Origin: a virus
Taxonomy: Duplodnaviria; Caudoviricetes
Virus record (IMG/VR): IMGVR_UViG_3300036770_008730
DNA: 64,000 nucleotides
Reading direction: 5' to 3' (one strand)
The position numbers were made by a program, and so were the translations under genes. Shown here piece by piece: positions 1 to 16,707 of the stretch. The notes beneath the pieces were generated by a model. The model was not told the DNA's origin. It was given only the letters and a program-made list of their open reading frames with translations, and searched no databases. The first letter of the stretch is position 1. Each line of letters begins with the position of its first letter.

Positions 1-345
1 ATGTACCAAATTAGAAAATGTCAAGAAATTGTGACTTATCATTGTTCACCAGTTTCTACAGTCGATCCTGAAAAGTTTAGAAACTTATCAATTGCCTACA
101 CCGGTAACTCAGAAAAGGAATTCTTAGAATATCTAAATAATTTATATCTAGATGATATCTATGACGAATTAGACGAGGATACTCAGATTGAATTGTCTTC
201 TTTTTACGAACCAGAAGAATGGGAAGAATATTTTAACTCAACTAACAAAGGAGAAAACTCTTGGTGTGAAATCGGTGAAGTGAATGAAGAATATAAAAAA
301 ACAGGTGGATTTGACGCAAGACACTCTACATTAGGTGATTACTAA
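1..345 (+). CDS. hypothetical acidic protein (may be 5'-truncated)
   Basis: Open frame from the window edge; no recognisable motif. Confidence 0.55.
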   Translation: MYQIRKCQEIVTYHCSPVSTVDPEKFRNLSIAYTGNSEKEFLEYLNNLYLDDIYDELDEDTQIELSSFYEPEEWEEYFNSTNKGENSWCEIGEVNEEYKKTGGFDARHSTLGDY

Positions 346-386
346 ATAATGGAAAAATCACTCATGTAGACATCAATATATAATTT

Positions 387-704
387 ATGTTTGATATTCA
401 TAAATATGATAAACATAAATTTAATAAGAATAAAGCTATTAATGATAAAATAAAAGCACTTTATTTACTATTTGATAAATATGTAGCTGATTCAAAACTC
501 AATTATTTCCAATCACAAAAATTAATCAATATTTGGATTCTAAAATTTATCTCATATGAAGAATATGAAATGGCTGAGGCTTTTAAACAAAGAAAGATTC
601 GGATGTGGAGAGATTGGCGTAAAATTCACAGATTAACATCTGTTAGATTATTTTGGCGTGTTTGGAGGATTCGACTTAAAAAACTATTATATAATAATAT
701 ATAG
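387..704 (+). CDS. hypothetical protein
   Basis: 105 aa ORF in the same-strand run. Confidence 0.55.
   Translation: MFDIHKYDKHKFNKNKAINDKIKALYLLFDKYVADSKLNYFQSQKLINIWILKFISYEEYEMAEAFKQRKIRMWRDWRKIHRLTSVRLFWRVWRIRLKKLLYNNI
695..703 (+). promoter_or_regulatory. late-promoter-like motif TAATATATA
   Basis: 6 nt upstream of ATG 709; the same motif recurs before many genes. Confidence 0.6.
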
Positions 705-708
705 TCAA

Positions 709-1869
709 ATGAAATGGATTAAACTTTTTGAAAGTTTCAAGGAAATTGAAAGTATTGTTTTAATTGGTGGTGGTATATCATCACTTTATGCAGCTTACTT
801 AATTAAAAAAAGATTTCCAAAGATTAAATATACCATTATCGAAAAGTCCGACAAATGTGGTGGGCGTGTTATTCAAGACGAACTAGACGGAGTGGATGTT
901 CCAACCGGTGCTCAATTTACAAGAATTGATAAAGATATATTATTAAATAAACTCTTAAAAGAACTTGAAATCGATTTAGATGTTTATAATTTAGATATTG
1001 ATTTCACATTCAGAAAGTCCGATGTTGATAGTATGATTTCAAAACTTAAAAAGAGTATGTCAAAATTCGATAGAAGTAAAATTACATTTTCCGAATTCGC
1101 AACTGATGTATTGGGTAAAAAAGAATATGAAAAATTTGTTGATATGATGGGTTATAGTGACTATGAAAATTCAGACTTTGAGGACACTATGACTAATTAT
1201 GGATTGGATGATAATTTACCTGGATATAAAGCAGCAGATGTTCCGTGGAATAAGGTTATTAAAAAGTTAATTTCAGAAGTAGGTCAAAAAAATATTGTTT
1301 TGAATACTGAAATCAAATCGATAAAAAATCAAAAGTCTAATTTTATTATTAACAATAAATGGAAGTGTGATGGTGTTATTATTGGAGTTACTATTAACTC
1401 ATTAAGAAAACTTATGGATGATTCTATTTACAATCAAATAGAGTCTCAGAGCTTCTTAAAAGTATTTGCTAAAACTACAGGAATGGAAGAAGTTGACAAA
1501 TATACAGTAGTAAACTCACCACTCAAAAAGGTTTTACCGGTAAAGAAAGATGTTTTTACAATCGCTTTTGCAGATAATAAAGATGCTACATATCTTAAAT
1601 CTAAAGATAAATCTTATTTTGAAAAGAGTTTATCAGAGCAATTTGATTCAGAAGTAAAGATTAAAAAAATGAAAAAATTCTTTTGGGAAGAAGGAACTCA
1701 TTATTTCAAACCACTACAAAAGAAATGGAAATCGAGAAAAGAGTTTTTAAAAGACGCACAACATCCACAAGACAACATTTGGGTAATTGGCGAAGTCGTT
1801 GCTGAAAAACAAGGTTGGGTGGAAGGAGCTTTAAATTCTGTAGAAAATATTTCTTTATTTAAGAAATAA
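709..1869 (+). CDS. FAD-dependent oxidoreductase, flavin amine oxidase family, with N-terminal capsid-targeting-like tag
   Basis: LIGGGISSLYAAY...IIEKSDKCGGR dinucleotide-binding motif; C-terminal WVIGE...GWVEGAL; start moved to MKWIKLFESF at 709. Confidence 0.85.
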   Translation: MKWIKLFESFKEIESIVLIGGGISSLYAAYLIKKRFPKIKYTIIEKSDKCGGRVIQDELDGVDVPTGAQFTRIDKDILLNKLLKELEIDLDVYNLDIDFTFRKSDVDSMISKLKKSMSKFDRSKITFSEFATDVLGKKEYEKFVDMMGYSDYENSDFEDTMTNYGLDDNLPGYKAADVPWNKVIKKLISEVGQKNIVLNTEIKSIKNQKSNFIINNKWKCDGVIIGVTINSLRKLMDDSIYNQIESQSFLKVFAKTTGMEEVDKYTVVNSPLKKVLPVKKDVFTIAFADNKDATYLKSKDKSYFEKSLSEQFDSEVKIKKMKKFFWEEGTHYFKPLQKKWKSRKEFLKDAQHPQDNIWVIGEVVAEKQGWVEGALNSVENISLFKK

Positions 1870-1873
1870 TTAT

Positions 1874-1881
1874 TATCTTTG
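1874..1881 (+). promoter_or_regulatory. Bacteroidota-type -7 promoter element (TAnnTTTG)
   Basis: TATCTTTG 20 nt before ATG 1901. Confidence 0.65.
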
Positions 1882-1900
1882 TTACTTAAAACATAAAATT

Positions 1901-2017
1901 ATGAATAGAAACGACTTTCAGGGTAAGAGAAAAGACCAATTGGAATTTTCTTATAAAATTACAGGAATTTCAATAGTATTATTAGGTTTAACTATTTTAG
2001 CAATTATTGTAGCATGA
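1901..2017 (+). CDS. 38-aa single-TM membrane peptide (not in ORF track)
   Basis: MNRNDFQGKRKDQLEFSYKITGISIVLLGLTILAIIVA; follows a promoter; ATGA overlap with the next gene. Confidence 0.6.
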   Translation: MNRNDFQGKRKDQLEFSYKITGISIVLLGLTILAIIVA

Positions 2018-2586
2018 TAGATAATTTTGAACAAATTTCAGAACTATTGAAATTTGATACTAATGATGATTTCTACCATCTTCAGATTCTTAAGCGAAAA
2101 AAAGAGAATCCCGAAATTGGTTCAAATTCACAAGTAATTAAAACTTATTATGTTTACTCGGTTGATTACCTACATAGTATAAAACCAGAGATTATTAACC
2201 TCTGTGAATTTCATAATGCCAGAGCTTGTATAAATCTAAATGCAAGGTCTTTAGAAAGAGCTGCCTTTCACACTCTTAAAAAAATCACTGATATAATTAT
2301 GAATAAAGATTACAAATCTGTTCATAAAGCATATGACTCTGTTTGTGGAACTTTTTGTACCGACAGAGACAAATCTTGGATAATTGATATTGATGTAAAG
2401 GATTTAAATGAAGTAAGTAGAATTTCTGATATTATTTGTTTGGTTGAACCTGTTGGTAATAAAACCATTTCCGTAGTTGAAACTAAAAATGGATACCACT
2501 TGATTTCTAAACCTTTCAATCTTTCTAAGGTCGATATACATCACGATATACATAAAAACAATCCAACAATTCTTTATATAAAATAA
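2014..2586 (+). CDS. hypothetical phage protein
   Basis: 190 aa; WIIDID and TKNGYHLI motifs suggest a conserved enzyme-like fold. Confidence 0.7.
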   Translation: MIDNFEQISELLKFDTNDDFYHLQILKRKKENPEIGSNSQVIKTYYVYSVDYLHSIKPEIINLCEFHNARACINLNARSLERAAFHTLKKITDIIMNKDYKSVHKAYDSVCGTFCTDRDKSWIIDIDVKDLNEVSRISDIICLVEPVGNKTISVVETKNGYHLISKPFNLSKVDIHHDIHKNNPTILYIK

Positions 2587-2590
2587 CAAT

Positions 2591-2818
2591 ATGGAACAAT
2601 TTACAAACATGATGAATCAATTCATCGAGATGCAACAAAAAACTCAAAACTTTTGGCAAGATGCTTTTAAAACCTCTGGAAAATTAACTGAAGATTACAC
2701 CACCATTATGGATAACTCGATTAAATTCCACCAAGCAGCCATTGAATATCACACTTCTATTGTTAAAATGATGGAGGCTATAAAAGATACTCAGGAAGTT
2801 CTTCTTAGAAAGAAATAG
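2591..2818 (+). CDS. hypothetical helical protein
   Basis: 75 aa, amphipathic Met/Gln-rich. Confidence 0.6.
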   Translation: MEQFTNMMNQFIEMQQKTQNFWQDAFKTSGKLTEDYTTIMDNSIKFHQAAIEYHTSIVKMMEAIKDTQEVLLRKK

Positions 2819-2829
2819 ATAATTGAAAT

Positions 2830-3540
2830 CTATTTTCCAAATCGAGATTTATGAACTTTATAGTTATGTAATATTTCCGAGTCTGTTAGAGCCTTTGAAT
2901 ATATCATCACATTATAAATGTTACCACCAAAGTAACCTTCAAAACTAGGTGTATTATTACCACCAATTCTAACAGAATTTGTAGATATATTAAAACTTGT
3001 TAGTATTAAAGATGATGATTGAACCAATGAGCCATCAACATATATCTTTAGTAACCCATTTATAACATCAATAATAGCAACAGCATTTATTAGTTGATTT
3101 GTATATGATAGTGGTGAGATTATAGACTCATTTGAAAATCCTGTATTACCTATACCAACATTGAGCTCACCAGTCGTTAAAAAAGCAAAAACATATTGCT
3201 CATAATATTGGAGATAATTATTTTGCTTAAATATAAATGGTGCATAAGCTCCATTGTATGTTCCATTATATTCTATCCAAGCACATAAAGTAATTGATTG
3301 TGTAGGATTTAGTGATGGATCGTTTGGTATATCTATAAAATCATCAACTCCATCAAAATAGATATTTCCAAAATTAGAAGTACTAAATGTGGGAGAATTA
3401 TTAAATAATCCGTTATTTTTTTCACTCGTTAGATCATTCCAATTGGAATCATAACCTGAATAAGATTTTTTGTTTGCTCCATCTAGATATAGTACTAAAT
3501 CATCTGTTATTATTCTACCACCACCTTGTAATGTACTCAT
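2830..3540 (-). CDS. LamG/concanavalin A-like lectin domain protein (putative virion adhesin)
   Basis: IITDDLVLYLDGAN start, FDGVDDFI, YFGGNIYNVMIYSKALTDSEILHNY. Confidence 0.8.
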   Translation of the reverse strand: MSTLQGGGRIITDDLVLYLDGANKKSYSGYDSNWNDLTSEKNNGLFNNSPTFSTSNFGNIYFDGVDDFIDIPNDPSLNPTQSITLCAWIEYNGTYNGAYAPFIFKQNNYLQYYEQYVFAFLTTGELNVGIGNTGFSNESIISPLSYTNQLINAVAIIDVINGLLKIYVDGSLVQSSSLILTSFNISTNSVRIGGNNTPSFEGYFGGNIYNVMIYSKALTDSEILHNYKVHKSRFGK

Positions 3541-3648
3541 TATATAAATCTCTTTTTTAATACATCATCTAAATAAAATACATCTAATTTATCGATTACA
3601 AGTGTTTCAACCATAAACTATATATAATTTTTGACAAATGTTATAGGA

Positions 3649-4359
3649 CTATAATCCAAATCTTGACTTTGTGGCATTATAGTTCTGAAGAACTTCTGAG
3701 GCTGATAGGGATTTTCCTCTATAAATACGGAAAATTGGAATTCTACCAATAAATGCAACATCACCCTCCGTTCTGTTTCCCAATTTTGCAGTAGTGGATC
3801 CTAAATTCGACCAATTAAAAGTGGTTCGGGTTACGGATGTATATTCAACTCCATTAATTGATAATCTAATATTAGTTCCATTTTTGACCGCAACAAGTTG
3901 ATACCAAGTATTAAAAGATATAGTAGGTGATGAAACAGAGACTACTGGTTCCATAACACCAGTTGCTCCATCTCCACCTATAACAAAGTTTCCACCGGGT
4001 CTTGAAATATACATAGTGGTTGAGTTTACATTTCCACTAACATCAATTCCAAATATATTTGACCTAAAGAGATTAGACCCAAAGGAAGTTTGATATAACC
4101 AAACTTCAATACTCCAATCACTAAAATTATTAAGACTGAGTAAAACATTCTGATTTATTTGAGCATATCCACCATTAAATAATAAACTACCTGAATTACT
4201 AGCAGTATATGATATCGAACCAACTATTGAAAAGTTATTCCTATTTGCGGTGAGGTCTGACCAATTTGTTCCAGTTTCTGGATAAGATTTTATATTTGCG
4301 GAATCTAAACAAACATATAATCCATCAGTAACTATTTTAGGTGAATAGTGAAAAGCCAT
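3649..4359 (-). CDS. LamG/concanavalin A-like lectin domain protein (paralog)
   Basis: SPKIVTDGLYVCLDSAN, WYQLVAV, FIGRIPIFRIY...LSASEVLQNYNATKSRF. Confidence 0.8.
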   Translation of the reverse strand: MAFHYSPKIVTDGLYVCLDSANIKSYPETGTNWSDLTANRNNFSIVGSISYTASNSGSLLFNGGYAQINQNVLLSLNNFSDWSIEVWLYQTSFGSNLFRSNIFGIDVSGNVNSTTMYISRPGGNFVIGGDGATGVMEPVVSVSSPTISFNTWYQLVAVKNGTNIRLSINGVEYTSVTRTTFNWSNLGSTTAKLGNRTEGDVAFIGRIPIFRIYRGKSLSASEVLQNYNATKSRFGL

Positions 4360-4417
4360 AAAGTATATATTAATCTAAACCTAGGTCTTTTAATTTCTTT
4401 TGCAATTTTTTTTCATG

Positions 4418-4903
4418 TTATTCATCTTTAAAGGTGAATAGCTCTTTCATAAATTCAATGAAATAGTTTTGATTTTCTATATTATAAGTTTCTATACCTC
4501 TGAATTGAATTTTCTTTGCCTTTTTTCGATGAATTGAATAACTATTCATAATAAATCGATATTCAACATAATTATTGGTATCTGGTTTGGTAGCAGGATA
4601 TAGCAAATCTTTTGTATTATCTTCATAGAATATGGTTATGATGGACTGGTCTGGGTTAATATTTTTGGGATAGTAAGTATAAAGATGAAGACCAACCTTA
4701 TTTGTGTCTAAACTATCAGATACAACACCAACAACAATAAAATCACCATCTTCTAATGGTGACTTGAAATCCATTATTGAATTTTTATATCTTCGAGTTA
4801 ATTCAAAACTATTGACAGAGTCTTTAATATAAAATCTTGAAACAGTAGATTGTGAGAATACCACCTCACTGATTAATAAGATGATTGTGAGTATTTTAAT
4901 CAT
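4418..4903 (-). CDS. secreted hypothetical protein
   Basis: Signal peptide MIKILTIILLISEVVFS followed by Gln. Confidence 0.65.
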   Translation of the reverse strand: MIKILTIILLISEVVFSQSTVSRFYIKDSVNSFELTRRYKNSIMDFKSPLEDGDFIVVGVVSDSLDTNKVGLHLYTYYPKNINPDQSIITIFYEDNTKDLLYPATKPDTNNYVEYRFIMNSYSIHRKKAKKIQFRGIETYNIENQNYFIEFMKELFTFKDE

Positions 4904-5186
4904 TGATTAGTTTATTTAGATTTTTATTTCTTAGAAACTCTTGAAAAAGTGTTTTATGAACTGTGCAACTGATATTAGAAAAGTATTTATATTTTTTTAC
5001 TTCACCAATTTTTTTGAAATTGACATTGTGTTTTATAGTAAAGGTCTCATTTTTTTCATCAATCGATAGTATTTCAATAGATGGTGTAGTTTCTTTATTT
5101 GACCAACATAACCTACTCTCTAGGTAATCTTTGTAAATTTGAAAATTATTGTCTAATAACATTAAATCTTTTTTCTTTAAGACCAT
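4896..5186 (-). CDS. hypothetical protein with C-terminal RNKNLNKLI motif
   Basis: 96 aa ORF with overlapping neighbours. Confidence 0.6.
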   Translation of the reverse strand: MVLKKKDLMLLDNNFQIYKDYLESRLCWSNKETTPSIEILSIDEKNETFTIKHNVNFKKIGEVKKYKYFSNISCTVHKTLFQEFLRNKNLNKLIND

Positions 5187-5709
5187 CGTATAAAATTATA
5201 ACATATCTACCAGATTTCAATTCACTAACATCGATTGAATTAGAGGTCAAATTGAACTGATTTACAATCAATCCCAATTCATTAATAATAATTATGTTTT
5301 TGATTGGTCTTTCCGATTGAATAAAAAACTTATCATGAGAGGGAATTGGATATAATTTAGTTTCAATTTCAGTTACAACTTCTTCTTCATTAGTCACATT
5401 ACAGAAAGAAAATGTAAAAATTATGTTTGTTGAAAATTGTGTTTTACATTCTTCAACACAAGGACAAGATTGCTCTGGAGTTAAACAAACAGTGATAACA
5501 TCAGCAGTGTCTGGAAATAAATATTTCCAAGCTACTAAAGCAGAATCATAAGATAAAAGTATTTGACCACTGGAACCAGAAATTGTGTCTGTGTAGGTTC
5601 CACTGAGTGTATATTGACAAACTGGACTTGTAACAAAAATGTTACCTGACCTAAACTGCGCAAAAGTTAAATTTGCAAATAATAAAAGTAATAATGTTAA
5701 TGTTTTCAT
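5146..5709 (-). CDS. secreted protein with T9SS type A C-terminal sorting domain
   Basis: Signal peptide MKTLTLLLLLFANLTFA-Q (start 5709); C-terminal KLYPIPSHD...IDVSELKSGRYVI...KRFNVIRQ. Confidence 0.8.
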   Translation of the reverse strand: MKTLTLLLLLFANLTFAQFRSGNIFVTSPVCQYTLSGTYTDTISGSSGQILLSYDSALVAWKYLFPDTADVITVCLTPEQSCPCVEECKTQFSTNIIFTFSFCNVTNEEEVVTEIETKLYPIPSHDKFFIQSERPIKNIIIINELGLIVNQFNLTSNSIDVSELKSGRYVIILYDGLKEKRFNVIRQ

Positions 5710-5972
5710 AATAAAAAAAAGTGATTGTCTTCCCATTCTGTTTTAAGTTTATTTTCTGTTTCAGTTGAAACACTAACAGAAACTGGAACTTTTGTTTTTT
5801 CGTGTTTAGAATATCTGAAGAAACAAGTATTATTTAAGTGATACTCAACTTTGATATACAAATCCTCCATAGCACAGTTGATAGAAGTTTTAGAATAGCC
5901 TTCAAGTTCAATCAATCTAAAACATCTTGGACACTTTATAAGTTTTGTCTTATATTTTTTTGTCTCATTCAT
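5706..5972 (-). CDS. hypothetical protein with CxxC
   Basis: Start moved to MNETKK at 5972; promoter TATATTTG at 5977-5984 on the minus strand. Confidence 0.6.
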   Translation of the reverse strand: MNETKKYKTKLIKCPRCFRLIELEGYSKTSINCAMEDLYIKVEYHLNNTCFFRYSKHEKTKVPVSVSVSTETENKLKTEWEDNHFFLL

Positions 5973-5988
5973 AGAACAAATATAAAAA

Positions 5989-6642
5989 TTATTTTGCAAA
6001 GTGCAAAATAGAAATTGTAATTAAAAGTAAACTTATTACTATGAAATTAAATTTAGCATGTAGTGAAGTTGCTGAGTCTATAGCTTCATACTCACACTTA
6101 TCAAAAGAAAAAGATTGTTCATAATGTTTATAGAATGAATTTTTATATCTGATTGAAAAAATGTAACCTATGAAACAAAGTAAAATGGCCGCAAATACTG
6201 GAACACCAACTATCATGTGTATAAATCCAAATTTGATAGAACTGATAATCCTATCTTTTACGGAAAATATTTGTGACCTAAAACTGAGCTCTTCCATTTT
6301 AGCCAAATAAGGTAAAATAGCAATCAGACAGAGATAAAATATTATAGTACCGATAAACGCAAAAGTGGATGTTCCTTCTGTTAGACCTGGATTTGCAATG
6401 AGATTTGTTCCAGAACCACCTAAAAGTTTAATCCAAGAAAATTTCAAAAATGATGGGAGTTCTACCATTGATAGTAGAGATAAAGTAGTTATTGTTCCTA
6501 AGAACAGAAGAAAGGCCCAGAAATAATCTTTCAGTTTACCGAAATAGATTTGTTTGAATAATTTTGGTTCATCCAAAAAAAATCTGATACCGTTCCAAAA
6601 TGTCAGACTAACTAGAATAAAAGTGATGATTGATAAAATCAT
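5989..6642 (-). CDS. CPBP (CAAX/Abi) family intramembrane metalloprotease
   Basis: Multiple TM segments; EELSFR, FGFIH and HAKFN motifs. Confidence 0.75.
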   Translation of the reverse strand: MILSIITFILVSLTFWNGIRFFLDEPKLFKQIYFGKLKDYFWAFLLFLGTITTLSLLSMVELPSFLKFSWIKLLGGSGTNLIANPGLTEGTSTFAFIGTIIFYLCLIAILPYLAKMEELSFRSQIFSVKDRIISSIKFGFIHMIVGVPVFAAILLCFIGYIFSIRYKNSFYKHYEQSFSFDKCEYEAIDSATSLHAKFNFIVISLLLITISILHFAK

Positions 6643-6848
6643 TTGTTTTGTTTTAACTTAATTAAGTTTATTATTATTACAATTGTGTTCATCAGGACTA
6701 CCGGATAAGCTTCGTGAAAATATCCATAGATTATAAACATTGAACAAGCAATAGAGTTTATGATTCTGAGTTTCCTAATATCTGTCATTAACATGGATAT
6801 AAGAACTATAATCATAGATAAATATCCCCAACTTTCTAAAAGTGTCAT
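6639..6848 (-). CDS. small inner-membrane protein (YgjV-like)
   Basis: GYLSMIIVLISMLM...KLRIINSIAC...YPVVLMN; three hydrophobic segments. Confidence 0.6.
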   Translation of the reverse strand: MTLLESWGYLSMIIVLISMLMTDIRKLRIINSIACSMFIIYGYFHEAYPVVLMNTIVIIINLIKLKQNK

Positions 6849-7117
6849 ATAACTGGATAATTTATTTGATATGGTTCAATTAAATCTTTTGTATCTTGTT
6901 TTACAAGTGACTCGTAAATAGGAATTAAATCATCATTCATTTTACTTTCACAACAACTAAGAACGAAAAGATACTGGTCATTTGATAGATGAATGAATCC
7001 AGACCTATCGGGATTTAAGAATTTATTTTTTACATTCTTCATTTTATTAGAGTCTATTGTATCTAATACAAAAACTTCTAATGTCGCAATTTGGTTAGAG
7101 GTTAATTTTAATTTCAT
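6845..7117 (-). CDS. hypothetical protein
   Basis: First gene of a coupled minus-strand operon; TATATTTG at 7159-7166. Confidence 0.6.
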   Translation of the reverse strand: MKLKLTSNQIATLEVFVLDTIDSNKMKNVKNKFLNPDRSGFIHLSNDQYLFVLSCCESKMNDDLIPIYESLVKQDTKDLIEPYQINYPVI

Positions 7118-7189
7118 AAAAGTGATATTGAAACTTTTCTGTTTTGTTTATATAAAAACAAATATACAAATAAATTTAAATCAAAAATT

Positions 7190-7915
7190 ATGGACTTAGG
7201 AAAAGAATTCAAAAAATACGCAAAAAGTGAAGGCATATCTTCACTTAACTTACATCACTTCGAAAATAGTATGACACCATATATATTAGAAGAAAGAGAA
7301 ATGAGAGTTACTCAAATGGATATTTTCTCAAGATTGATGAGAGATAGAATCTTATGGGTCGCAGGTGCAGTAGACGATAACATGTCTACGATCGTTCAAG
7401 CTCAGTTAATGTTCTTAGATTCGGTTGAAAAGAAAGATATTACAATGCACATCGACTCACCTGGTGGTTCTGTTAAATCAGGATTATCTATGGTAGATGT
7501 TATGAACTATATCAACTCCGATATTTGCACAATCAATACCGGCATGGCAGCATCTATGGGATCGGTTTTACTCTCATCCGGGACTAAAGGTAAAAGAGCA
7601 TCATTGAGATTTTCAAAAGTTATGACACATCAAGTAAGTCACGGAACTCAAGGTAATATTCAAGATACTCGTATAAATCAGTTAGAAGCTGAAAAATACA
7701 ACTACATTCTATTCAAAATATTAGGTGAGAATTGTGGTAAATCTTATAAAGAAGTTATTGAATGGTCGAGAAGAGATCGTTGGTATAACTCTGATGAAGC
7801 TCTAAAGTTTGGCCTTATTGATGAAATCATAGGTATTGATAAAAGTCCATCCATTGAAAAGTTATTAGAAGGATTTGACGAGTACTACAAAAACGAAGTA
7901 TTAGATAGAAGTTAA
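7190..7915 (+). CDS. clpP: ATP-dependent Clp protease proteolytic subunit
   Basis: DIFSRLMRDRI, IDSPGGSV, AASMGS (Ser), MTHQ (His), RDRW (Asp). Confidence 0.95.
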   Translation: MDLGKEFKKYAKSEGISSLNLHHFENSMTPYILEEREMRVTQMDIFSRLMRDRILWVAGAVDDNMSTIVQAQLMFLDSVEKKDITMHIDSPGGSVKSGLSMVDVMNYINSDICTINTGMAASMGSVLLSSGTKGKRASLRFSKVMTHQVSHGTQGNIQDTRINQLEAEKYNYILFKILGENCGKSYKEVIEWSRRDRWYNSDEALKFGLIDEIIGIDKSPSIEKLLEGFDEYYKNEVLDRS

Positions 7916-7964
7916 TTTTAGAAAAATTAGATTTAATATATACCATTAAATTTAATTTTCTCAA

Positions 7965-9497
7965 ATGATTAAAAGATATTTAGACTTTGTTAATGAATCT
8001 TTAGAACTTCTATTAGAATCAAATGTGGTCTACTCTGACAAACTTAGAACCGTCTTAAATAAGATAGGTGGTCCAATTGCTCAAAAACTAATTGAAATTG
8101 AAAATACTGATTTACCAGTTAGGTCAAACTTTTTTGATATAGTTCCTAAAAAGAACGACTCTATCAACTTTATGCCTGATAGAAAGGCGCAAGAGATTTT
8201 AGCAGATAAAACAGTTAGTGTAAGATTTATTGGATCTGATTCGGGTTGGTTAAAACATTCACCAGCTAATGATGAAATCTTTGCAACACTTGGATATACA
8301 CCACAAGGTGCTAATCCTTATAGACCAAATTCTTCAGACATTGGAACAATAGTATCTAGTTATGTATCACCGACATCCGGTAAGACGTATTGCTATGTTA
8401 ATTTTTCAGACACATCTGGGATCGAATTAGGAAAAGGTGTTTACAATAAAGAAAAGTTAAGAGAGACCACTGACCAAAAGGATAAACTTTGGGGCAAAGG
8501 TCGTCAAGAAATTGGAGTTGGTAGAGGAATTAGAGCTTTACTTTTAACAACTGGTGAAAAGTTTTTAGATAAAGATATAGAAGCATTTGTAAATCTTTAC
8601 AAAGCAACTCTTGATAAGATGAATGATAAATTTTCCTTATTCGAGGTTGTTGATGGAGATGATATATATCATTGGTATCAAAGAGAAAATTACTTTGAGA
8701 GAAAAGGACAGTTAGGTGGTTCTTGTATGGGATCAGCTAGAGAATCTTGGCTTGAGATCTATACCACCAATCCAAATCAAGTAAAATTGATTATTATGAA
8801 ATCCGAACAAGATGATTCTATGATTATAGGTAGAGCTCTTCTTTGGACTCTTAGAGATGGTAAGAAGTTTATGGATAGAGTTTACACTATCAATGATTCT
8901 GATATACAGTTATTTAGAGAATACGCAAAAGAAAATGGATGGTATGCTAAGTATCATAATGGTAGCACATCTAATAATTCATCAATTGCACCTGAAGGTG
9001 GTGTAGTAAATTTAGACCTAACTGTAATTTTAGACAAGAAAGATTACGAACATTTTCCTTATTTAGATACTTTAAAATACTTTACACCAGGAACTGGTAA
9101 GCTAAACAACACTAGTGGTGATTACTTATTGGAAGATACCGGTGGTGATTATGTAAGATGTGATTCTTGTGGTGGAAGTGGAACTCAAGAGTGTTATGAT
9201 TGTGATGGAAGAGGAGAACAAGAGTGTTATGATTGTGATGGTAGCGGAACAGAGGATTGTAATAATTGTGATGGAAATGGAACACAACCTTGCGATAATT
9301 GTGATGGAGAAGGTCAAATAGAAGATGAAGAAGGAAATTCAGAAGATTGTCCAGAGTGTGATGGAGATGGTCATAGAGATTGTGAAGATTGCGATGGTAG
9401 CGGAAAAATGGATTGTTCAACTTGTGATGGTGATGGTAGAAATGAATGTTCGTCTTGTGATGGTCGCGGCGAACATGAATGTCACGAATGTAACTAG
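7965..9497 (+). CDS. tagged 'SCM-GRALLW-DRxY' family protein with C-terminal DnaJ-like zinc-finger repeats
   Basis: MIKRYLDFVNES start; GSCM, GRALLW, MDRVY, PYLDT; nine CxxCxGxG repeats plus a final CxxC. Confidence 0.85.
   Translation: MIKRYLDFVNESLELLLESNVVYSDKLRTVLNKIGGPIAQKLIEIENTDLPVRSNFFDIVPKKNDSINFMPDRKAQEILADKTVSVRFIGSDSGWLKHSPANDEIFATLGYTPQGANPYRPNSSDIGTIVSSYVSPTSGKTYCYVNFSDTSGIELGKGVYNKEKLRETTDQKDKLWGKGRQEIGVGRGIRALLLTTGEKFLDKDIEAFVNLYKATLDKMNDKFSLFEVVDGDDIYHWYQRENYFERKGQLGGSCMGSARESWLEIYTTNPNQVKLIIMKSEQDDSMIIGRALLWTLRDGKKFMDRVYTINDSDIQLFREYAKENGWYAKYHNGSTSNNSSIAPEGGVVNLDLTVILDKKDYEHFPYLDTLKYFTPGTGKLNNTSGDYLLEDTGGDYVRCDSCGGSGTQECYDCDGRGEQECYDCDGSGTEDCNNCDGNGTQPCDNCDGEGQIEDEEGNSEDCPECDGDGHRDCEDCDGSGKMDCSTCDGDGRNECSSCDGRGEHECHECN
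9157..9494 (+). repeat. coding repeat array of CxxCxGxG units (mostly 33-nt period)
   Basis: caagagtgttatgattgtgatgg occurs at 9186 and again at 9219. Confidence 0.8.
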
Positions 9498-9498
9498 T

Positions 9499-9780
9499 AT
9501 GAAGTATATCAATTCATATAAAGTATTTGAAAGTCATTATAACAAAGAAGAGTTTATCGATGTTGTTTGTAGAGAACTTTCTAAATATCAAATAACACCA
9601 TTAGAGGTAAAAACCCTATTACAAAAATACGATAATCAAATAACTCAAAGTTTAGAATCTGGAATAAACCCTCAGGATTTTTCTAAACAAATTATTAGTG
9701 ATTTAGAATTAGATAACACCGGAGGTGCTTTATCTGTCAACTTTAATAAACCAAATGTTCCTGAGATAAAATATTTGTAA
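9499..9780 (+). CDS. small tagged hypothetical protein
   Basis: Start moved to MKYINSYKVFES at 9499, just after the upstream stop. Confidence 0.7.
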   Translation: MKYINSYKVFESHYNKEEFIDVVCRELSKYQITPLEVKTLLQKYDNQITQSLESGINPQDFSKQIISDLELDNTGGALSVNFNKPNVPEIKYL

Positions 9781-9785
9781 AAAGA

Positions 9786-9810
9786 AAATCCGTTTTAATC
9801 AAACGGATTT
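9786..9810. terminator. hairpin between convergent genes
   Basis: aaatccgttt / aaacggattt inverted repeat. Confidence 0.7.
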
Positions 9811-10502
9811 ATTGAAATATAATCTTCACAAATTTCATCATCATCGTGATAGTGCCACTCACCATCATCATTGTTAAAATAAATATCTCTACCATCAGAT
9901 CCTCTATAGATAATCTCATCTTCTTCATGTACCAAAGATACTTCTTTGTCAAATCTATCTGTGTAGAGAACACCACAATCATCGCTACCTTCGAGTGAAT
10001 AGGATAATCTAATATCTAAATCAGGAAACTTTTTTTGAAGATTATTTAAGAAATTAGCTGGTGGTGACCAAGCCGTATCAAAATATACATTGAACTCATC
10101 ATCACCTTTGACAAAATCACTAGCATCAATATCCCACTTAGTTCCATAAGTTATGATATTCCAATCATACCAATTATCAGCACCATATTCTTTTTTTAAT
10201 GCTTCACACTTTTCATCAGTATTGTTTTCACACGCAATTAAATTTACTTCAATTTCTGAACCTAACATTTCACTTAAATTAACATCACGTATTTTAGCAG
10301 TATCAGCATTTATCCACTTTTTACCTTTAGCAGAACTAGATGGCGCAATAGTATTTTTTACTTTTTCCGGCATCGGAAATATGTTCGCAAAAGTAAATGT
10401 TATATCACCATTGATGTTTGGTTTAAGAGCAACATCATAAAACTCTTTCATTTTTTCAGGATTTCCTGTGATAGTTAAATTGTTATAAGACCAGTTTGGC
10501 AT
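9795..10502 (-). CDS. DUF1281/YubB ferredoxin-like domain protein
   Basis: MPNWSYNNLTI, NWYDWNIITYGTKWD, FDTAWSPP. Confidence 0.8.
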   Translation of the reverse strand: MPNWSYNNLTITGNPEKMKEFYDVALKPNINGDITFTFANIFPMPEKVKNTIAPSSSAKGKKWINADTAKIRDVNLSEMLGSEIEVNLIACENNTDEKCEALKKEYGADNWYDWNIITYGTKWDIDASDFVKGDDEFNVYFDTAWSPPANFLNNLQKKFPDLDIRLSYSLEGSDDCGVLYTDRFDKEVSLVHEEDEIIYRGSDGRDIYFNNDDGEWHYHDDDEICEDYISINPFD

Positions 10503-10503
10503 A

Positions 10504-11064
10504 TTATTCGTTATTTAAGTTTACAATTACAGAGTCAGACCAATTGGGTTCATAATTGAACACCTTTTCCGAGTATTTATTTATAATAGGTTTTCCGGTG
10601 TTATAGGCACCAAAAGCCACTTTCCAATCACCATATTTGGAGTAAAGTTGTTTGAGAAGTAAAGCAGATATTTTAACATTCAGTTGTATATCCTTTAATA
10701 GTTTTTTATTTTGTATTTTTCTACCTAAAACAATTTTAGCAGTTCCAGGCATTATTTGCATCGGACCCAATGCACCTACTGAAGATTTCACACTAGGATT
10801 ATATTTGAAGTCAAAAGGTCCTTGCCAACCCGATTCAGTGGATGCTATTCCATACATATAATTTATAGGTATGTTAAGTGAGTCACTATAGAAATTACAA
10901 TAGTAATAGACTCTAAGTGATGGTGGTAAGTCTTTGTCAATGTTTTTATGGATTTCCAAATCGTGTTTTTTAGGTTTGACAGTAAGATATGTTAAACTGA
11001 CACCAATCAAAAAACAACTTGACATAAGAATCCAATTGTTTTTAAAGTATTGAATTATTTTCAT
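10504..11064 (-). CDS. lytic transglycosylase (SLT domain) with N-terminal membrane anchor
   Basis: IASTESG (catalytic Glu), GALGPMQIMPGTA, AFGAYNTG; TATATTTG promoter at 11069-11076. Confidence 0.85.
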   Translation of the reverse strand: MKIIQYFKNNWILMSSCFLIGVSLTYLTVKPKKHDLEIHKNIDKDLPPSLRVYYYCNFYSDSLNIPINYMYGIASTESGWQGPFDFKYNPSVKSSVGALGPMQIMPGTAKIVLGRKIQNKKLLKDIQLNVKISALLLKQLYSKYGDWKVAFGAYNTGKPIINKYSEKVFNYEPNWSDSVIVNLNNE

Positions 11065-11123
11065 AAAACAAATATACGAACTATTTTTTAATTTTTAATA
11101 TTTATTTTTTTAATAAATAGATT

Positions 11124-11855
11124 ATGAGAAAAATTAAAAGATATAAGCAGTTTTTTGAAGATTCAACCTCAACAGCTTCTTCAACATCCGGTAGTGGTGA
11201 TATATCAAATCCAACAGTAGGTACAATTCCTGGAATGCCTGGATTACCAGGTAGTGGAGATTTATCTTTTTATCTGAGAAGTAGGAAAAGAAAAAAAGGA
11301 AAAGCTAATCAAGTCACAGATTTAAGAGATTTAGCACCATCAAAGGAGGTTACTCATTTAAAAGAAAGTTTAGATTTCTCTCATAGAATACCGGAATTAA
11401 ATCCTGATATAAAATCAATAGTAAATGAATGTCTATCGGAATTAACTGACCAAGACTTTGAACTAACTATGTTAAAGTACGATAATAATAGAGAATCAGT
11501 TGAAATTGATGAAGATGAATCTGGTGAGTTTATTCAAGAAGAATTAAGAATATCATTACACAAAGTAATTAATATGATATGGACTGGCAATATGAGTTTA
11601 AGAGGTAATTTTAAAGAGAGTATAGAAGAAATAAAAACATATACATTGAGAGGTACAAAAGAACTCAATGATGAAGAGAAAAATCTAATAAATATAGTTG
11701 AGGTAGCTTCATTAAGGTTAAAAGATTTCTTGGAATATCAGAGTGGAGTATTCAACATTTCTTGGATAGTTGCTGGATCAGCAATGCCTTGGAATAGTGA
11801 AAGAACAGTAAATGTAAATGTTGACTTTACACTATTCAATGATTTAAAGATTTAA
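11124..11855 (+). CDS. tagged hypothetical protein
   Basis: MRKIKRYKQFFED start; TAATAAATA at 11111-11119. Confidence 0.7.
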   Translation: MRKIKRYKQFFEDSTSTASSTSGSGDISNPTVGTIPGMPGLPGSGDLSFYLRSRKRKKGKANQVTDLRDLAPSKEVTHLKESLDFSHRIPELNPDIKSIVNECLSELTDQDFELTMLKYDNNRESVEIDEDESGEFIQEELRISLHKVINMIWTGNMSLRGNFKESIEEIKTYTLRGTKELNDEEKNLINIVEVASLRLKDFLEYQSGVFNISWIVAGSAMPWNSERTVNVNVDFTLFNDLKI

Positions 11856-11878
11856 TATATAAAAAAAAGCCATTAACA

Positions 11879-12331
11879 ATGAAAAAAACAACTTTCGCAA
11901 AAGCAAATCTTAACGAATTAAAAAATCCACCAGCTAATCATGTAGCTGTATGGGTCGATTCTAATAATGTTTTTACTACTTTAGATCCTAATGGAAATAG
12001 TATTTCACTAGGTTCTTTAATAAATAAAAACACACAAACTGGAACAACTTATAGTTTATTAGCATCTGATGGTGGTAAAATTGTTGAGATGAACAATGGA
12101 TCCACAAACTCAGTAACTATACCTACAAATGCAACCGTTCCATTTCAAATAGGAACACAAATACTAATTTCTCAATATGGTGCAGGTCAAACGGGCTTCA
12201 CCTGGTCTTCAGGAACAGTAACGGTTAGAAGTGTTGGTAACAAAACGAAGTTAAATGGTCAATATGCAGCAGCAACTCTTTTTAAGAGAGACACTAATGA
12301 ATGGTATATCTTTGGGGATATAACTACATAA
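11879..12331 (+). CDS. putative virion/tail-fibre-associated protein
   Basis: TYSLLASDGGKIVEMNN...VTIPTNATVPFQIGTQILISQYGAGQ module; TTAATATATA at 11852-11861. Confidence 0.6.
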   Translation: MKKTTFAKANLNELKNPPANHVAVWVDSNNVFTTLDPNGNSISLGSLINKNTQTGTTYSLLASDGGKIVEMNNGSTNSVTIPTNATVPFQIGTQILISQYGAGQTGFTWSSGTVTVRSVGNKTKLNGQYAAATLFKRDTNEWYIFGDITT

Positions 12332-12352
12332 AAAGATAGAAATTTAAAATAG

Positions 12353-12395
12353 AAAAGACCGAATTAATTGTGTGAATCAATCAATTCGGTCTTTT
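12353..12395. terminator. bidirectional intrinsic terminator
   Basis: aaaagaccgaatt / aattcggtctttt inverted repeat. Confidence 0.8.
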
Positions 12396-12603
12396 TTAGT
12401 TTCAGAATTCACATTTCATTCACTATCATCATACGCCTTTTATTTCGACAGTATCGGTATGACTTGATACTAATCTACTGCGGGACAAACAGTTTTTTCA
12501 TCCCCCTAACCTCGGCAAAAGTTAGCCTGTTATTTGTTGTAATTGCCGTTACTAACTTATTACAGGATATTTGTTGTTTTGGTTTCGGTATAACTTAAAT
12601 ACC
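12353..12603 (-). ncRNA. candidate structured non-coding RNA (about 250 nt)
   Basis: Lies between a full Bacteroidota promoter and a terminator; no ATG-started ORF of note; several complementary segment pairs. Confidence 0.45.
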
Positions 12604-12609
12604 TTAATA

Positions 12610-12641
12610 CAAAAGTATGGTTTTTTTCTTAATTTGCCAAA
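12610..12641 (-). promoter_or_regulatory. Bacteroidota-type promoter (-33 TTTG, 20-nt spacer, -7 TACTTTTG)
   Basis: Minus strand reads tttggcaaattaagaaaaaaaccatacttttg. Confidence 0.7.
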
Positions 12642-12681
12642 CTTTTTTAATATATAATTCTCAAAAAATAAAAATTAAAGA

Positions 12682-13059
12682 ATGAAAGAAGCATTTGGAC
12701 CACACATCACTATTGACCTCAAAGGTTGCCCTAAGGAAGTTTTATCAAATTATGATTTACACTTTGAATATTTGAAGAAATTGCCTGGATTAATCCAAAT
12801 GACTCCTATAACACAACCTTATGTATTTCCTTACTCTGGTTTAGTTCCATCTGATAAAGGCATCACTGGAATTGTAATAATTGCTGAAAGTCACCTTTCA
12901 ATTCACTCTTTCGAAGAAAAGGGATATTCATTTATTGATATATTTTCTTGTAAAGACTTTGATACAGAAAAGGCAATTCAAATTACATTGGAAATGTTTA
13001 AACCAGAATCTTATGAAATCAACACGGTTAAAAGAGGTTTAGATTTCCCAAGAGACTAA
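12682..13059 (+). CDS. speD: S-adenosylmethionine decarboxylase proenzyme (or related pyruvoyl decarboxylase)
   Basis: FGPHITIDL, GITGIVIIAESHLSIH self-cleavage motif, DIFSC; TTAATATATA at 12647-12656. Confidence 0.9.
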   Translation: MKEAFGPHITIDLKGCPKEVLSNYDLHFEYLKKLPGLIQMTPITQPYVFPYSGLVPSDKGITGIVIIAESHLSIHSFEEKGYSFIDIFSCKDFDTEKAIQITLEMFKPESYEINTVKRGLDFPRD

Positions 13060-13096
13060 TTTTTGAAATTAATATATACAAAAAAGAAATATTTTT

Positions 13097-13960
13097 ATGA
13101 AATATATTGTGAAGTATCATGATTTTGAGTCCGTTAATGAAGAACTTAATTGGTGGCAAAAATTACTATTAGGTGGTGGAATTATTGGATCAATGTTTGC
13201 CCCAAAGGATGTTTCTGGTCAAACAAAAGATGATAGCAAAAGAGTCACAGTACACACTAAAACAAAATCTGATAGAAGTGCTGAAATACTTCAAAAAAGG
13301 GGTTGGTCTTTAGATAGTACTACTATTGATACATTATGGAAAAAAGTTCAAATAGCAAAACCTGATACAGAACTTGTAACAAGTACTTTACAATTTGACG
13401 ATGCTCAGTTTTTTCCATCTGGTAAATTCACACTTACTCAGGAAATGATGGATGGTATCATTGAAGAGTTAAAAAGAATAGATTCTGAAGGTGGCGTTAT
13501 AACAGATGTCATGATTGAGTCTTCAACTGATAAACAAGGACTTAGTCAAAATCTTCAAAGATCATTATCAAATATGGGTTATACTTCAAATAATCAGGGT
13601 TTGTCACAAGCTAGATGTAATGCAATTAAAAGCTATTTAATGAGCTTACAAATAAGTCCCTCAATTATACAAGAAAATCCTCTTTGGGAACAAGGTACTG
13701 CAACAATCGACCAGTCGGCTAGATATGTGTTTGTGAGGTTCGCTTATATAGTTATTGATCAAAATATCACACCAGGTGAATTTGAATACATACCTCAAAT
13801 TAAAAAAACTTACCATCTATCAAAAGAAAGTGAGTATAAGAAAGTTAAAATAAAAAAGAGTTCGTTTAAATGGGGAACTAAAAAAGTTAGAAAACACGGA
13901 CCAATTAAAAATCGTAAACTAAACCTTAAAGGTGTTGAATGTAGAATGCCTGGTGGATAA
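13097..13960 (+). CDS. tagged protein with signal/TM segment and OmpA-like peptidoglycan-binding domain
   Basis: MKYIVKYHDFESVNEE, hydrophobic WWQKLLLGGGIIGSMFA, FFPSGKFTL, IESSTD, NQGLSQARCNAIKSYL. Confidence 0.7.
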   Translation: MKYIVKYHDFESVNEELNWWQKLLLGGGIIGSMFAPKDVSGQTKDDSKRVTVHTKTKSDRSAEILQKRGWSLDSTTIDTLWKKVQIAKPDTELVTSTLQFDDAQFFPSGKFTLTQEMMDGIIEELKRIDSEGGVITDVMIESSTDKQGLSQNLQRSLSNMGYTSNNQGLSQARCNAIKSYLMSLQISPSIIQENPLWEQGTATIDQSARYVFVRFAYIVIDQNITPGEFEYIPQIKKTYHLSKESEYKKVKIKKSSFKWGTKKVRKHGPIKNRKLNLKGVECRMPGG

Positions 13961-14000
13961 TTTACCGATCGATTAAAAACAAATCACCTCAAATAATTTT

Positions 14001-15677
14001 ATGTATATAAGGAGATATAGTAACTTTGTAAAAGTTAAAAGAATAAATGAGTCGATTGCCTTATTTGAAGCAGTTCTAAATATTGATAAAAATATTGTAG
14101 ATGTATTAGACCAAATGGTGTCTGATAAAAATGCTGATGAGAAATATAAAATAATTGCTGGCACCATTAAAAGTGGTATAGGTCAAGATTATAAATCAAA
14201 TCGATATGATCAAGTAAGTTTATCATCTGATAATAAAAATTTTAGTGTAAAATCAGGTAAGCAGACAAACACACAGAGCATATCAAAAGTCATTAGAACA
14301 ACTTTAATGGCTATAAATCCTAATTTCTTCAAAGATAATTCACAAATAAAAGATGATACTATTCAGAAATTTGCAGATTATATAATTGGTAAAATGTCTA
14401 TTTCAGCTCCGTCTGGTGATACTGAAACCAAAATAGTTACAGGTGAAGAAATTAAATTCTGGTATGATAGAAAAAACATGAAGAATAAAACAGGTAGCGA
14501 ATTATCTAAATCTTGTATGGCGTCGAATTATAAATTAAATTTCATGGATTTTTATGTTAAAAATAAAAATATTAGTTTAGTTGTTAAATTAGATGCTGAT
14601 AAAAAACTTATAGGTAGAGCTCTACTTTGGAAACTCGAAAGTTCAAGTGAAGGAAATGAATATTTCTTAGACAGACGTTACTGCAATGAGAATTCAGACG
14701 AAGAGTTTCTTTATAATTGGGTTAAGTCACAACCTGGATATTCTAAAACAGGTAAAAGAGAAAGTAAAGCTTTGAGTTCAAATACATCTGATGAAATGGT
14801 TGTAAAACTAGATGTTGCCATTACTAAGACTTATCCGTATGTTGATACGATGAAATATCTTTATATCAAATATGAGAATGGAAATTTAATCAATGAAGGA
14901 TTTTTATCAAATAAAAAAATGGGAGAAGGTAATAAAAATGAATTTGTGGGAATAGTTGAATATCCTGGTCACAAAATTTTTGTTCTTCAAGATACCGAGG
15001 GATGTAGAAAATCACTGGATCCGGAGGATAGACATCTTAACAGCAAAGGTATAACTAAAATTATAACCGGATTGAATAAACAAATTGATGTGAGTGAATA
15101 CGACAAACCACTAGGTGATGCCAAGTCTGTAATTAACTTACTTAATTTTTTCAAGAAATCAGGTGATTTAGCATCAATGTTTGATATAAAGATTACTGAT
15201 GATGATGTTGAGGATGAGGGTTATGAAAAATTTGATAACTCTACACTTGTAAAACCTGGTCTAAATGTAAAAATGGTAAATAGTTATTCAGGAGATAGAG
15301 ACTCGGTCAAATATATGTGTTTAAGAGCATATGATGTGTCTAAGCTAATGGATGATAGAGAATTTGCTGAAATTGTAGAAAAGATTAGCACGATGTATAT
15401 GCTAGAACATAAAAAATTGATGACGGAAATTGACCTAATTATTCTTGGTAGATTAGATGAGGTTAAGTCGAGTGAAGTTTATTACGTCGGCGCTGATAAT
15501 TTACGATACGAAAAAGATAGTGATTCGGATGATTTAGACACAGACAATTTACCAAAACTAACCTCTGAACAAAAAGAAGAAAGAGCAAATGAATTATTAG
15601 TTAAATTATCTAAGAACGATGAAGCTCTTAAATTAAGACAGGAACTAATAAAGTTAGCACCTATGTTAAGAGGTTAA
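14001..15677 (+). CDS. tagged 'SCM-GRALLW-DRxY' family protein (paralog 2)
   Basis: MYIRRYSNFVKVKRINES; KSCM, GRALLW, LDRRY, YPYVDT. Confidence 0.85.
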   Translation: MYIRRYSNFVKVKRINESIALFEAVLNIDKNIVDVLDQMVSDKNADEKYKIIAGTIKSGIGQDYKSNRYDQVSLSSDNKNFSVKSGKQTNTQSISKVIRTTLMAINPNFFKDNSQIKDDTIQKFADYIIGKMSISAPSGDTETKIVTGEEIKFWYDRKNMKNKTGSELSKSCMASNYKLNFMDFYVKNKNISLVVKLDADKKLIGRALLWKLESSSEGNEYFLDRRYCNENSDEEFLYNWVKSQPGYSKTGKRESKALSSNTSDEMVVKLDVAITKTYPYVDTMKYLYIKYENGNLINEGFLSNKKMGEGNKNEFVGIVEYPGHKIFVLQDTEGCRKSLDPEDRHLNSKGITKIITGLNKQIDVSEYDKPLGDAKSVINLLNFFKKSGDLASMFDIKITDDDVEDEGYEKFDNSTLVKPGLNVKMVNSYSGDRDSVKYMCLRAYDVSKLMDDREFAEIVEKISTMYMLEHKKLMTEIDLIILGRLDEVKSSEVYYVGADNLRYEKDSDSDDLDTDNLPKLTSEQKEERANELLVKLSKNDEALKLRQELIKLAPMLRG

Positions 15678-15685
15678 TTAAAATA

Positions 15686-16213: not shown

Positions 16214-16247
16214 ACTACAAATATAATAAAAAAATTATAAAAACAAA

Positions 16248-16496: not shown

Positions 16497-16707
16497 TTAG
16501 TTGATATTGTTTCTTTAGAATTACTATTTCAAAAAGACCATAGACATTATTAAATAATTTATCATTATATAAAATGTCAGATTCACTACACTTCAAATCA
16601 GCGCAATAAGCACCGATATAATCAATGAATTTTTTTAATATTTCGTTGGTAGATTCTATACCATTGAAAAAATCGATTGCTAATTGTCTTAAAGTTTGAG
16701 GTTCCAT
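16486..16707 (-). CDS. hypothetical protein
   Basis: 73 aa, overlaps its neighbour. Confidence 0.55.
   Translation of the reverse strand: MEPQTLRQLAIDFFNGIESTNEILKKFIDYIGAYCADLKCSESDILYNDKLFNNVYGLFEIVILKKQYQLNEV

Follow-up and report, generated by a model that had tools for sequence, protein, structure and literature searches.

A gene of a putative huge Bacteroidota phage encodes a small cysteine-rich protein with the architecture of a type A type IX secretion substrate

We analyzed a 64,000-nucleotide stretch of the IMG/VR virus record IMGVR_UViG_3300036770_008730 (here called the window) and found that one of its genes, P0001, encodes a protein whose sequence and modeled fold support the full architecture of a substrate of the T9SS (type IX secretion system), namely, a Sec signal peptide, a small cysteine-rich passenger, an acidic linker, and a type A C-terminal sorting domain (CTD) (Table 1). 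The joint best explanation, which we consider probable, is that P0001 is a genuine type A T9SS cargo of a huge phage of Bacteroidota and that the passenger is its working part. As for the role of the passenger, we favor, with low confidence, a remodeling of the infected-cell surface (e.g., receptor masking or the exclusion of other phages) ahead of jamming of the secretion system; this is a preference and not a finding, because the passenger fold is a generic one.

The sorting domain passed the cutoffs of two curated models. Pfam model PF18962 matched residues 119 to 177 at 32.2 bits (gathering score, 27; E = 1.3e-7), and TIGR04183 matched residues 119 to 185 of 187 at 23.6 bits (cutoff, 23; E = 3.8e-5). 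An NCBIfam scan to an E value of 10 gave no match to the type B CTD model (TIGR04131) and returned only TIGR04183 and two type A-dependent equivalogs. When a profile of the P0001 family was compared with PDB entries by sequence, it matched the CTDs of the Flavobacterium johnsoniae substrates FspA (8glj_D; E = 4.8e-6) and NucA (8glk_D; E = 8e-5). The domain also lies at the extreme C terminus, as the TIGR04183 match extends to residue 185 and the fold match to the last residue. We searched the window in six frames with a profile of P0001-family CTDs and found no second CTD; the same profile also detected CTDs on unrelated cargo genes elsewhere.

The AlphaFold model of P0001, built from a 19-sequence alignment, had a mean predicted local distance difference test score (pLDDT) of 85 and consisted of two beta-sandwiches with the disordered acidic linker between them. 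The second of these (residues 118 to 186) was modeled as a 7-strand sandwich. In a structure search independent of Foldseek, residues 114 to 187 matched the CTDs of RemZ (8gl8; Z = 9.5), NucA (8glk; Z = 9.5), FspA (8glj; Z = 9.0), and RemA (8gl6; Z = 8.9), with root mean square deviations of 1.9 to 2.2 over 70 to 72 residues and up to 24% identity. The CTDs of mirolase, PorZ, and RgpB scored lower (Z = 7.1 to 8.0), and two stand-alone DUF3244 proteins matched at Z = 9.7 (4g5a) and Z = 9.0 (3d33). A Foldseek search with the whole model returned generic two-immunoglobulin (Ig)-domain matches only. Removal of the CTD is predicted to take place in the linker, between residues 107 and 113.

Signal peptides, here and below, were judged by eye on the sequence. 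The N terminus of P0001 has one Lys, a 14-residue hydrophobic core, and the residues T-F-A, followed by Gln18, which was invariant among the 19 aligned family members. Cleavage before Gln has been termed the "Bacteroidetes Q-rule" (PMC5837995), and Porphyromonas phages have been noted as encoding Q-rule signal peptides (PMC10367356). Gln follows in all four of the signal-peptide-like N termini that we read in the window (P0001 and three others).

The passenger is 85 residues in size and is defined by the family-wide invariance of six Cys residues (C31, C75, C82, C84, C88, and C103) and of D55. Modeled alone, residues 18 to 106 form an 8-strand Ig-like sandwich (pLDDT, 90.7). Its fold matches in the PDB were generic (Ig, filamin, cytokine receptor, and CBM-like), with a best Z score of 6.4, which is within the range that the search tool calls common. 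A Pfam scan of P0001 found neither a catalytic signature nor a family for the passenger, and a PHROGs scan assigned no family to P0001. When the passenger structure was searched against the ESM Atlas, the top match was a cluster in which all labeled members are viral, and the next match came from Bacteroidota. Three parts of P0001 had been claimed in the earlier note, which was made from the letters alone: the signal peptide ending before Gln, the small Cys-rich passenger, and the type A CTD were all borne out; the motifs that it listed for the CTD (YPIP, IDVSELKSGRYVI, and a C-terminal KRFNVIRQ) are all present as given; and the TIGR04183 search that it proposed ended in a narrow pass.

Two further observations concern the passenger. 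A close homologue on a 1,153-bp contig, P0004 (78% identical to P0001 in the passenger and 86% in the CTD), carries an insertion of ∼43 residues with four extra Cys residues just after the fifth conserved Cys (C88), and the passenger therefore tolerates an insertion at this position. Separately, phmmer aligned the passenger to 4 stretches of the large protein P0023 and to 12 stretches of P0030, as if it were a repeat unit of large proteins. This idea was rejected because P0023 is a Calx-beta protein and hhalign gave it a probability of 0.05 against the passenger profile.

The open reading frame (ORF) of P0001 has no internal stops over 187 residues. An alternative in-frame ATG at position 5736 would add 9 residues, and the start at 5709 corresponds to the MK.. 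start of distant homologues and has a 4-nucleotide overlap with the stop of the preceding gene. Compared with a 94%-identical copy on the contig L020, P0001 has a ratio of nonsynonymous to synonymous substitution rates (dN/dS) of 0.16 (8 nonsynonymous and 13 synonymous changes). For the passenger, the ratio is 0.05 (1 nonsynonymous and 6 synonymous changes), and for the CTD, it is 0.24. These values indicate purifying selection on the gene. In freshwater metagenome contigs from other studies, P0001 is intact and bridged to its neighbor genes, and the sole length change among these contigs is an in-frame 3-nucleotide deletion. Two metatranscriptome runs yielded only short unrelated pieces when compared with the gene block around P0001.

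The architecture of P0001, from which we read its export pathway, suggests the following sequence of events. The precursor would be exported by Sec, and signal peptidase I would cut after Ala17, exposing Gln18 for cyclization, as occurs in most exported proteins of Bacteroidota. Once in the periplasm, the passenger would fold into an Ig-like sandwich, with three disulfides probably holding it together. Recognition of the C-terminal beta-sandwich by the PorV/SprA translocon would carry the protein across the outer membrane, where the tag would be removed in the acidic linker and the passenger left at the surface of the cell or released into the medium. As the working part, the passenger most likely acts by binding, since it has no catalytic signature.

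We next consider the carrier of the gene. The window has a GC content of ∼29 to 34% throughout and many ORFs without a family, and it includes genes for a gp5-like baseplate hub, a primase, and a UvsW-like helicase, along with auxiliary genes for ClpP, adenylosuccinate synthetase, and a GAF-PAS histidine kinase. The helicase is 80% identical to that of LR745206 (634 kb) and 77% identical to that of LR756502 (642 kb), both from uncultured phages, and the hub shows 39% identity over >90% of its length. From these similarities, the window appears to be part of a huge phage (∼0.6 Mb) that is kin to LR745206 and LR756502. Al-Shayeb et al. reported four complete genomes of 634, 636, 642, and 735 kb in 2020 (PMC7162821), and we infer that LR745206 and LR756502 are among the genomes of that study. 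The largest of these belong to the Mahaphage clade, with Bacteroidetes as predicted hosts; the main text of the study does not mention T9SS (PMC7162821). Neither megablast of window positions 1 to 20000 nor tblastn of P0001 found a match among 50,697 phage records, and IMG/VR, scanned with P0001 and again with the alignment A1, yielded no relative.

The host is probably a member of Bacteroidota, as suggested by the predicted hosts of the related phages, by the Q-rule signal peptides, and by the occurrence of bacterial relatives of P0001 in Bacteroidota metagenome-assembled genomes (MAGs). The same evidence supports the statement of the earlier note that P0001 points to such a host, and its description of the gene as phage encoded holds, given the hub, the primase, and a helicase that is 77 to 80% identical to those of 634- to 642-kb uncultured phages. 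The roles that the note proposed for the protein (superinfection exclusion, receptor masking, or T9SS jamming) are conjectural.

The conservation of P0001 and its relatives bears on the question of which part of the protein does the work. Among ten phage-type members of the family, mean pairwise identity was 42% in the passenger versus 25% in the CTD, and P0001 and P0009 are 58% identical in the passenger versus 20% in the CTD. Higher conservation of the passenger is the pattern expected when the passenger is functional and the tag generic, and it favors real cargo over a pure jammer.

Related phage-like contigs also carry genes that encode the CTD without the passenger. These minigenes combine a different signal peptide (also before Gln) with ∼10 acidic linker residues and a CTD that is 71 to 82% identical to that of P0001. 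Their site, beside a Collar-domain gene, is conserved, and their dN/dS values are 0.15 to 0.19. Because their homology with P0001 begins inside the linker, the sequences allow two histories: either the passenger was deleted in the minigenes, or a minigene-type CTD was recombined onto the passenger.

The minigenes give substance to a rival explanation, in which P0001 is a T9SS decoy or jammer: its CTD would tie up PorV, SprA, or the PorU sortase, so that surface proteins of the host, possibly including phage receptors, would be exported more slowly, and the passenger would be dispensable. We keep this as the main rival because the bare sorting domain is under selection in L001, L033, and L034 with conserved synteny. 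In addition, the CTD of the window is 71% identical to that of L001, whereas the neighboring Laminin_G_3 genes are only 35 to 40% identical. Pure jamming nevertheless fits P0001 poorly because the passenger, with its six invariant Cys residues and low dN/dS, is better conserved than the tag, and it is not evident that one small cargo could saturate a secretion system. We therefore regard the decoy explanation of P0001 as doubtful.

Several points weigh against P0001 being cargo with a working passenger. The persistence of a bare CTD under purifying selection suggests that the tag alone can be useful to these phages. The cutoff of TIGR04183 was exceeded by 0.6 bits only, and the substitutions behind the dN/dS of P0001 are few. 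The generic fold of the modeled passenger gives no clue to its function. Phage context was verified for 5 of the 13 phage-type family members, with the rest located on 1- to 2-kb contigs. The host would, moreover, have to possess a T9SS, which is presumed from its likely phylum.

The origin of P0001 was traced through its family. An exhaustive phmmer search with P0001 gave 107 matches, including full-length relatives of ∼175 to 200 residues with E values from 1e-103 to 1e-9; matches weaker than 1e-9 were mostly CTDs on unrelated cargo. The tree of the full-length family has one split, with 100/99 support, between 13 phage-type and 9 bacterial-type members. The bacterial branch is found on chromosomal contigs with purD, leuS, extracytoplasmic function sigma factor, and SprB genes, as well as in lake MAGs labeled Flavobacteriales, "Chitinophaga pinensis," and Bacteroidetes. 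The simplest reading of the tree is one transfer between Bacteroidota and the phage group, in either direction, and the phage lineage most likely has a common origin with a small T9SS cargo family of freshwater Bacteroidota.

The bacterial members directly adjoin a larger CTD-bearing cargo gene located upstream in five or more loci (Table 1), and the larger and the smaller gene may form a two-gene unit. This arrangement is one argument for a second rival, in which P0001 is a host-type accessory protein: a small secreted and possibly glycan-binding module that acts beside larger T9SS enzymes and sustains or alters the surface physiology of the host during a long infection, with no antiphage role. 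The bacterial homologues have an identical architecture, the passenger has weak fold matches to CBM41, CBM56, and starch-binding modules (Z = 5.5 to 5.8), and glycoside hydrolases are encoded by the cargo genes of the "Cryophage" described below (PMC7468147). However, no large T9SS enzyme lies beside the phage gene, whose neighbors encode small membrane and secreted proteins, and the fold matches again fall in the range that counts as common for the tool. Little may follow from the adjacency, because Bacteroidota have clustered T9SS cargo genes in any case. We consider this explanation unlikely.

A third possibility is that the C-terminal sandwich resembles a CTD without being used for type IX secretion, as in stand-alone DUF3244 proteins, and that P0001 is a periplasmic or other envelope protein. 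The DUF3244 matches do equal those of true CTDs, and the pass of TIGR04183 was narrow. Against this, two independent curated models were passed, the family profile matches experimentally trapped substrates by sequence, the domain follows a disordered linker at the extreme C terminus, which is the arrangement of real cargo, and the bacterial homologues are Por_Secre_tail proteins by annotation and by score; we therefore judge it very unlikely. Finally, it is hardly credible that P0001 is not phage borne and entered the record by bacterial contamination or chimeric assembly, since, even though the family is also present in bacterial chromosomes, contigs that were assembled independently from several samples have the same gene order, contigs of other studies bridge the gene and its neighbors, GC content is even across the window, the tree separates phage-type from bacterial-type members, and the top Atlas match is a cluster with only viral members among those labeled.

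P0001 is located within a tight co-oriented block that runs from position 7117 to 4418 and has several overlapping stops and starts. Seven genes, from that of the 69-residue protein through one Laminin_G_3 gene, recur in order in the contig L002 at 33 to 82% identity. In related contigs, the block appears conserved and, as far as its predicted products indicate, directed at the envelope. For the 217-residue membrane protein, a Pfam search gave no match, and an ESM Atlas feature search listed an Rce1-like cluster (PF02517) at rank 11 with a score of 0.90, which is a lead only. Upstream of the block, a candidate Bacteroidota-type −7 box was found; this single box is weak evidence because the window shows no enrichment of the motif (118 occurrences versus ∼105 expected). 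Scans for sigma-70-type promoters and for terminators gave results at chance level.

Table 1. Coordinates of P0001, its parts, the surrounding genes, and related loci (window positions unless a contig is named)
Feature	Position	Strand	Basis or remarks
T9SS cargo gene P0001 (stop codon included)	5146..5709	-	ORF and translation, 187 residues
Sec signal peptide of P0001, residues 1-17	5659..5709	-	Read by eye; Gln18 invariant; predicted signal peptidase I cut A17/Q18
Passenger of P0001, residues 18-106	5392..5658	-	8-strand Ig-like beta-sandwich (modeled), six invariant Cys
Acidic linker, residues 107-113	5371..5391	-	Modeled disordered (pLDDT <50); likely CTD-removal region
Sorting domain (type A CTD) of P0001, residues 114-187	5149..5370	-	PF18962, TIGR04183, fold, and profile matches
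Candidate promoter, Bacteroidota-type −7 box TATATTTG	7159..7166	-	42 nucleotides upstream of the first gene of the block
90-residue protein without a family, opening the block	6845..7117	-	ORF; 42% homologue in L008
69-residue small membrane protein	6639..6848	-	Homologues in L002 (82%) and L008 (70%); weak below-cutoff YgjV-like match
217-residue multipass membrane protein	5989..6642	-	CPBP/Rce1-like motifs EExxxR, FxxxH, and HxxxN in order; homologues in L002 (50%) and L008 (43%)
97-residue Cys-containing protein, just upstream of P0001	5706..5999	-	42% homologue at the same position in L002; weak zinc-ribbon hints below cutoff
96-residue protein, just downstream, overlapping the 3′ end of P0001	4896..5186	-	Homologues beside the cargo gene in L002, L020, and L008/L009
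161-residue secreted-type protein with its own signal peptide	4418..4903	-	Homologues in L002 (50%) and L020 (95%); signal-like N terminus VFS-Q (sequence)
Two 236-residue Laminin_G_3 (concanavalin-like) genes, after the block	2830..4359	-	PF13385, E = 1e-20 and 3e-14; PHROG virion-structural-like matches
Signal-like N terminus, GFS-Q	15686-16213	-	Sequence
Signal-like N terminus, GFC-Q	18939-19397	+	Sequence
CTD-only minigenes, 99-101 residues	L001 10142-10444; L033 1592-1891; L034 within gene 515-943		Related phage-like contigs
Larger CTD-bearing gene plus bacterial family member	L004 6517-10603; L006 8266-10570; L007 3612-5961		BNR-like or beta-helix passengers
Larger CTD-bearing gene plus bacterial family member	L014 4638-6597; L011 1-946		CTD profile matches

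The position of the cargo gene differs between related contigs. In L008/L009, the P0001 homologue is kept and its neighbors are rearranged, and in L018/L019, the gene is located elsewhere, flanked by PaaA-DUF6576 and HU genes; L001, an 80-kb contig with synteny to these, has no cargo gene at that site. P0001 is therefore a mobile accessory gene and not a core gene. A search of five published huge phages with the passenger profile and the 217-residue protein found neither, a weak negative, as it had no positive control.

Three observations on other genes of the window were made along the way. There are two ClpP-like genes, at 7190-7915 (+) and 53737-54519 (-), of which the former is 72 to 74% identical and the latter 39% identical to the same ClpP-like frame of LR745206. 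When 18 kb around this homologue was compared with the window, only ClpP was common, and the insertion site of the P0001 block is therefore not definable from LR745206. Just after the first ClpP gene, a 510-residue protein (7965-9497, +) ends in a long C-terminal run of CxxCxGxG-type repeats and has weak, below-cutoff matches to BSD2 and Anti-TRAP zinc fingers. The GAF-PAS-PAS histidine kinase (24136-26292, -) has a homologue with 56% identity at 7441-8178 of L008, alongside the P0001 homologue of that contig, and the phage sensor kinase is therefore not a one-off.

Sorting domains of this type were also sought beyond the P0001 family. The five published huge phages LR756502, LR745206, LR756501, LR756504, and LR756500 (L026 to L032) each have one or two matches to PF18962, which exceeded the Pfam cutoff in four of the five records and in none of 14 control genomes. 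The matching proteins range from ∼115 to 500 residues and have signal-like N termini, several of them before Gln, and the P0001 passenger profile matched none of their passengers. The CTD-like domain of LR756501 (L028) is an internal one, with ∼300 residues after it. The literature that we searched held no mention of these matches.

A phage-encoded T9SS cargo is not without precedent. In 2020, Bellas et al. described a "Cryophage" that encodes type A CTD cargo, termed this a unique occurrence, and proposed that the phage hijacks the T9SS of its host (PMC7468147); the novelty that the earlier note attached to P0001 was thus overstated. The two cases are alike in that a Bacteroidota host is presumed and phage genes carry type A sorting domains, and in that the cargo genes vary between variants of Cryophage as P0001 varies in presence and position. 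Cryophage cargo, however, comprises an endoglucanase, a glycoside hydrolase family 39 protein, and a PA14 protein, whereas P0001 is a small nonenzymatic Ig-like Cys-rich module of a Mahaphage-type phage and has CTD-only relatives.

Compared with cellular proteins, P0001 shares the 7-strand C-terminal tag of RemA, RemZ, NucA, and FspA of F. johnsoniae, whose structures were obtained bound to the SprA-PorV translocon (8gl6, 8gl8, 8glk, and 8glj). Those substrates are host proteins with large passengers (adhesins and a nuclease), whereas P0001 is viral, has a small passenger, and is likened to them by modeled fold and sequence. RgpB of Porphyromonas gingivalis (5ag8 and 5ag9) similarly has an Ig-like domain directly before the CTD sandwich; 5ag8 appeared in the whole-model Foldseek list and the 5ag9 CTD matched at Z = 7.1. 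The Ig-like domain of RgpB, however, follows a protease domain and has no sequence relationship to the P0001 passenger. The freshwater Bacteroidota family (e.g., P0135 on a 57-kb bacterial contig) consists of true homologues with the same plan of signal peptide, Gln, six-Cys passenger, and CTD at 23 to 29% identity, but these are chromosomal, often downstream of a large cargo gene, and separated from the phage branch in the tree. The DUF3244 proteins of Bacteroides (BT_1867, 4g5a; BVU_0276, 3d33) are small secreted proteins with little beyond the CTD-type sandwich, which makes them the closest analogue of the L001 and L033 minigenes; P0001 differs from them in having a separate passenger.

These comparisons invite a broader and more speculative proposal, that this clade of huge Bacteroidota phages generally manipulates the T9SS of its hosts, each genome with one or more small proteins made of a signal peptide, a CTD, and interchangeable passengers, that some lineages have reduced these to bare sorting domains that plug or decoy PorV, SprA, or PorU, and that P0001 is the cargo form, whose Ig-like module blocks the adsorption of rivals from the surface of the infected cell. 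Taken as a whole, it is a tentative idea that we would not expect to hold in full. We know of no experimental demonstration to date that a virus uses sorting tags of its own to control the secretion system of a bacterium.

P0001 is thus a further example of phage T9SS cargo and not a new principle, and it extends the single published report, on Cryophage, to the largest known phages. What it adds is the huge-phage setting, a family common to phages and Bacteroidota, and natural CTD-only variants. Being small, P0001 would make an easily expressed test protein, and the CTD-only variants could separate the role of a tag from that of an inhibitor. CTDs together with Q-rule signal peptides may also serve as a practical host-phylum marker for assigning uncultured huge phages to Bacteroidota.

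In Bacteroidota, gliding, adhesion, and the degradation of polymers are driven by surface proteins that the T9SS exports. Flavobacterium is reported to acquire phage resistance through mutations in gliding genes, among other routes (PMC9804748). By passing proteins of its own through the T9SS, a phage could change which agents infect or attach to the infected cell.

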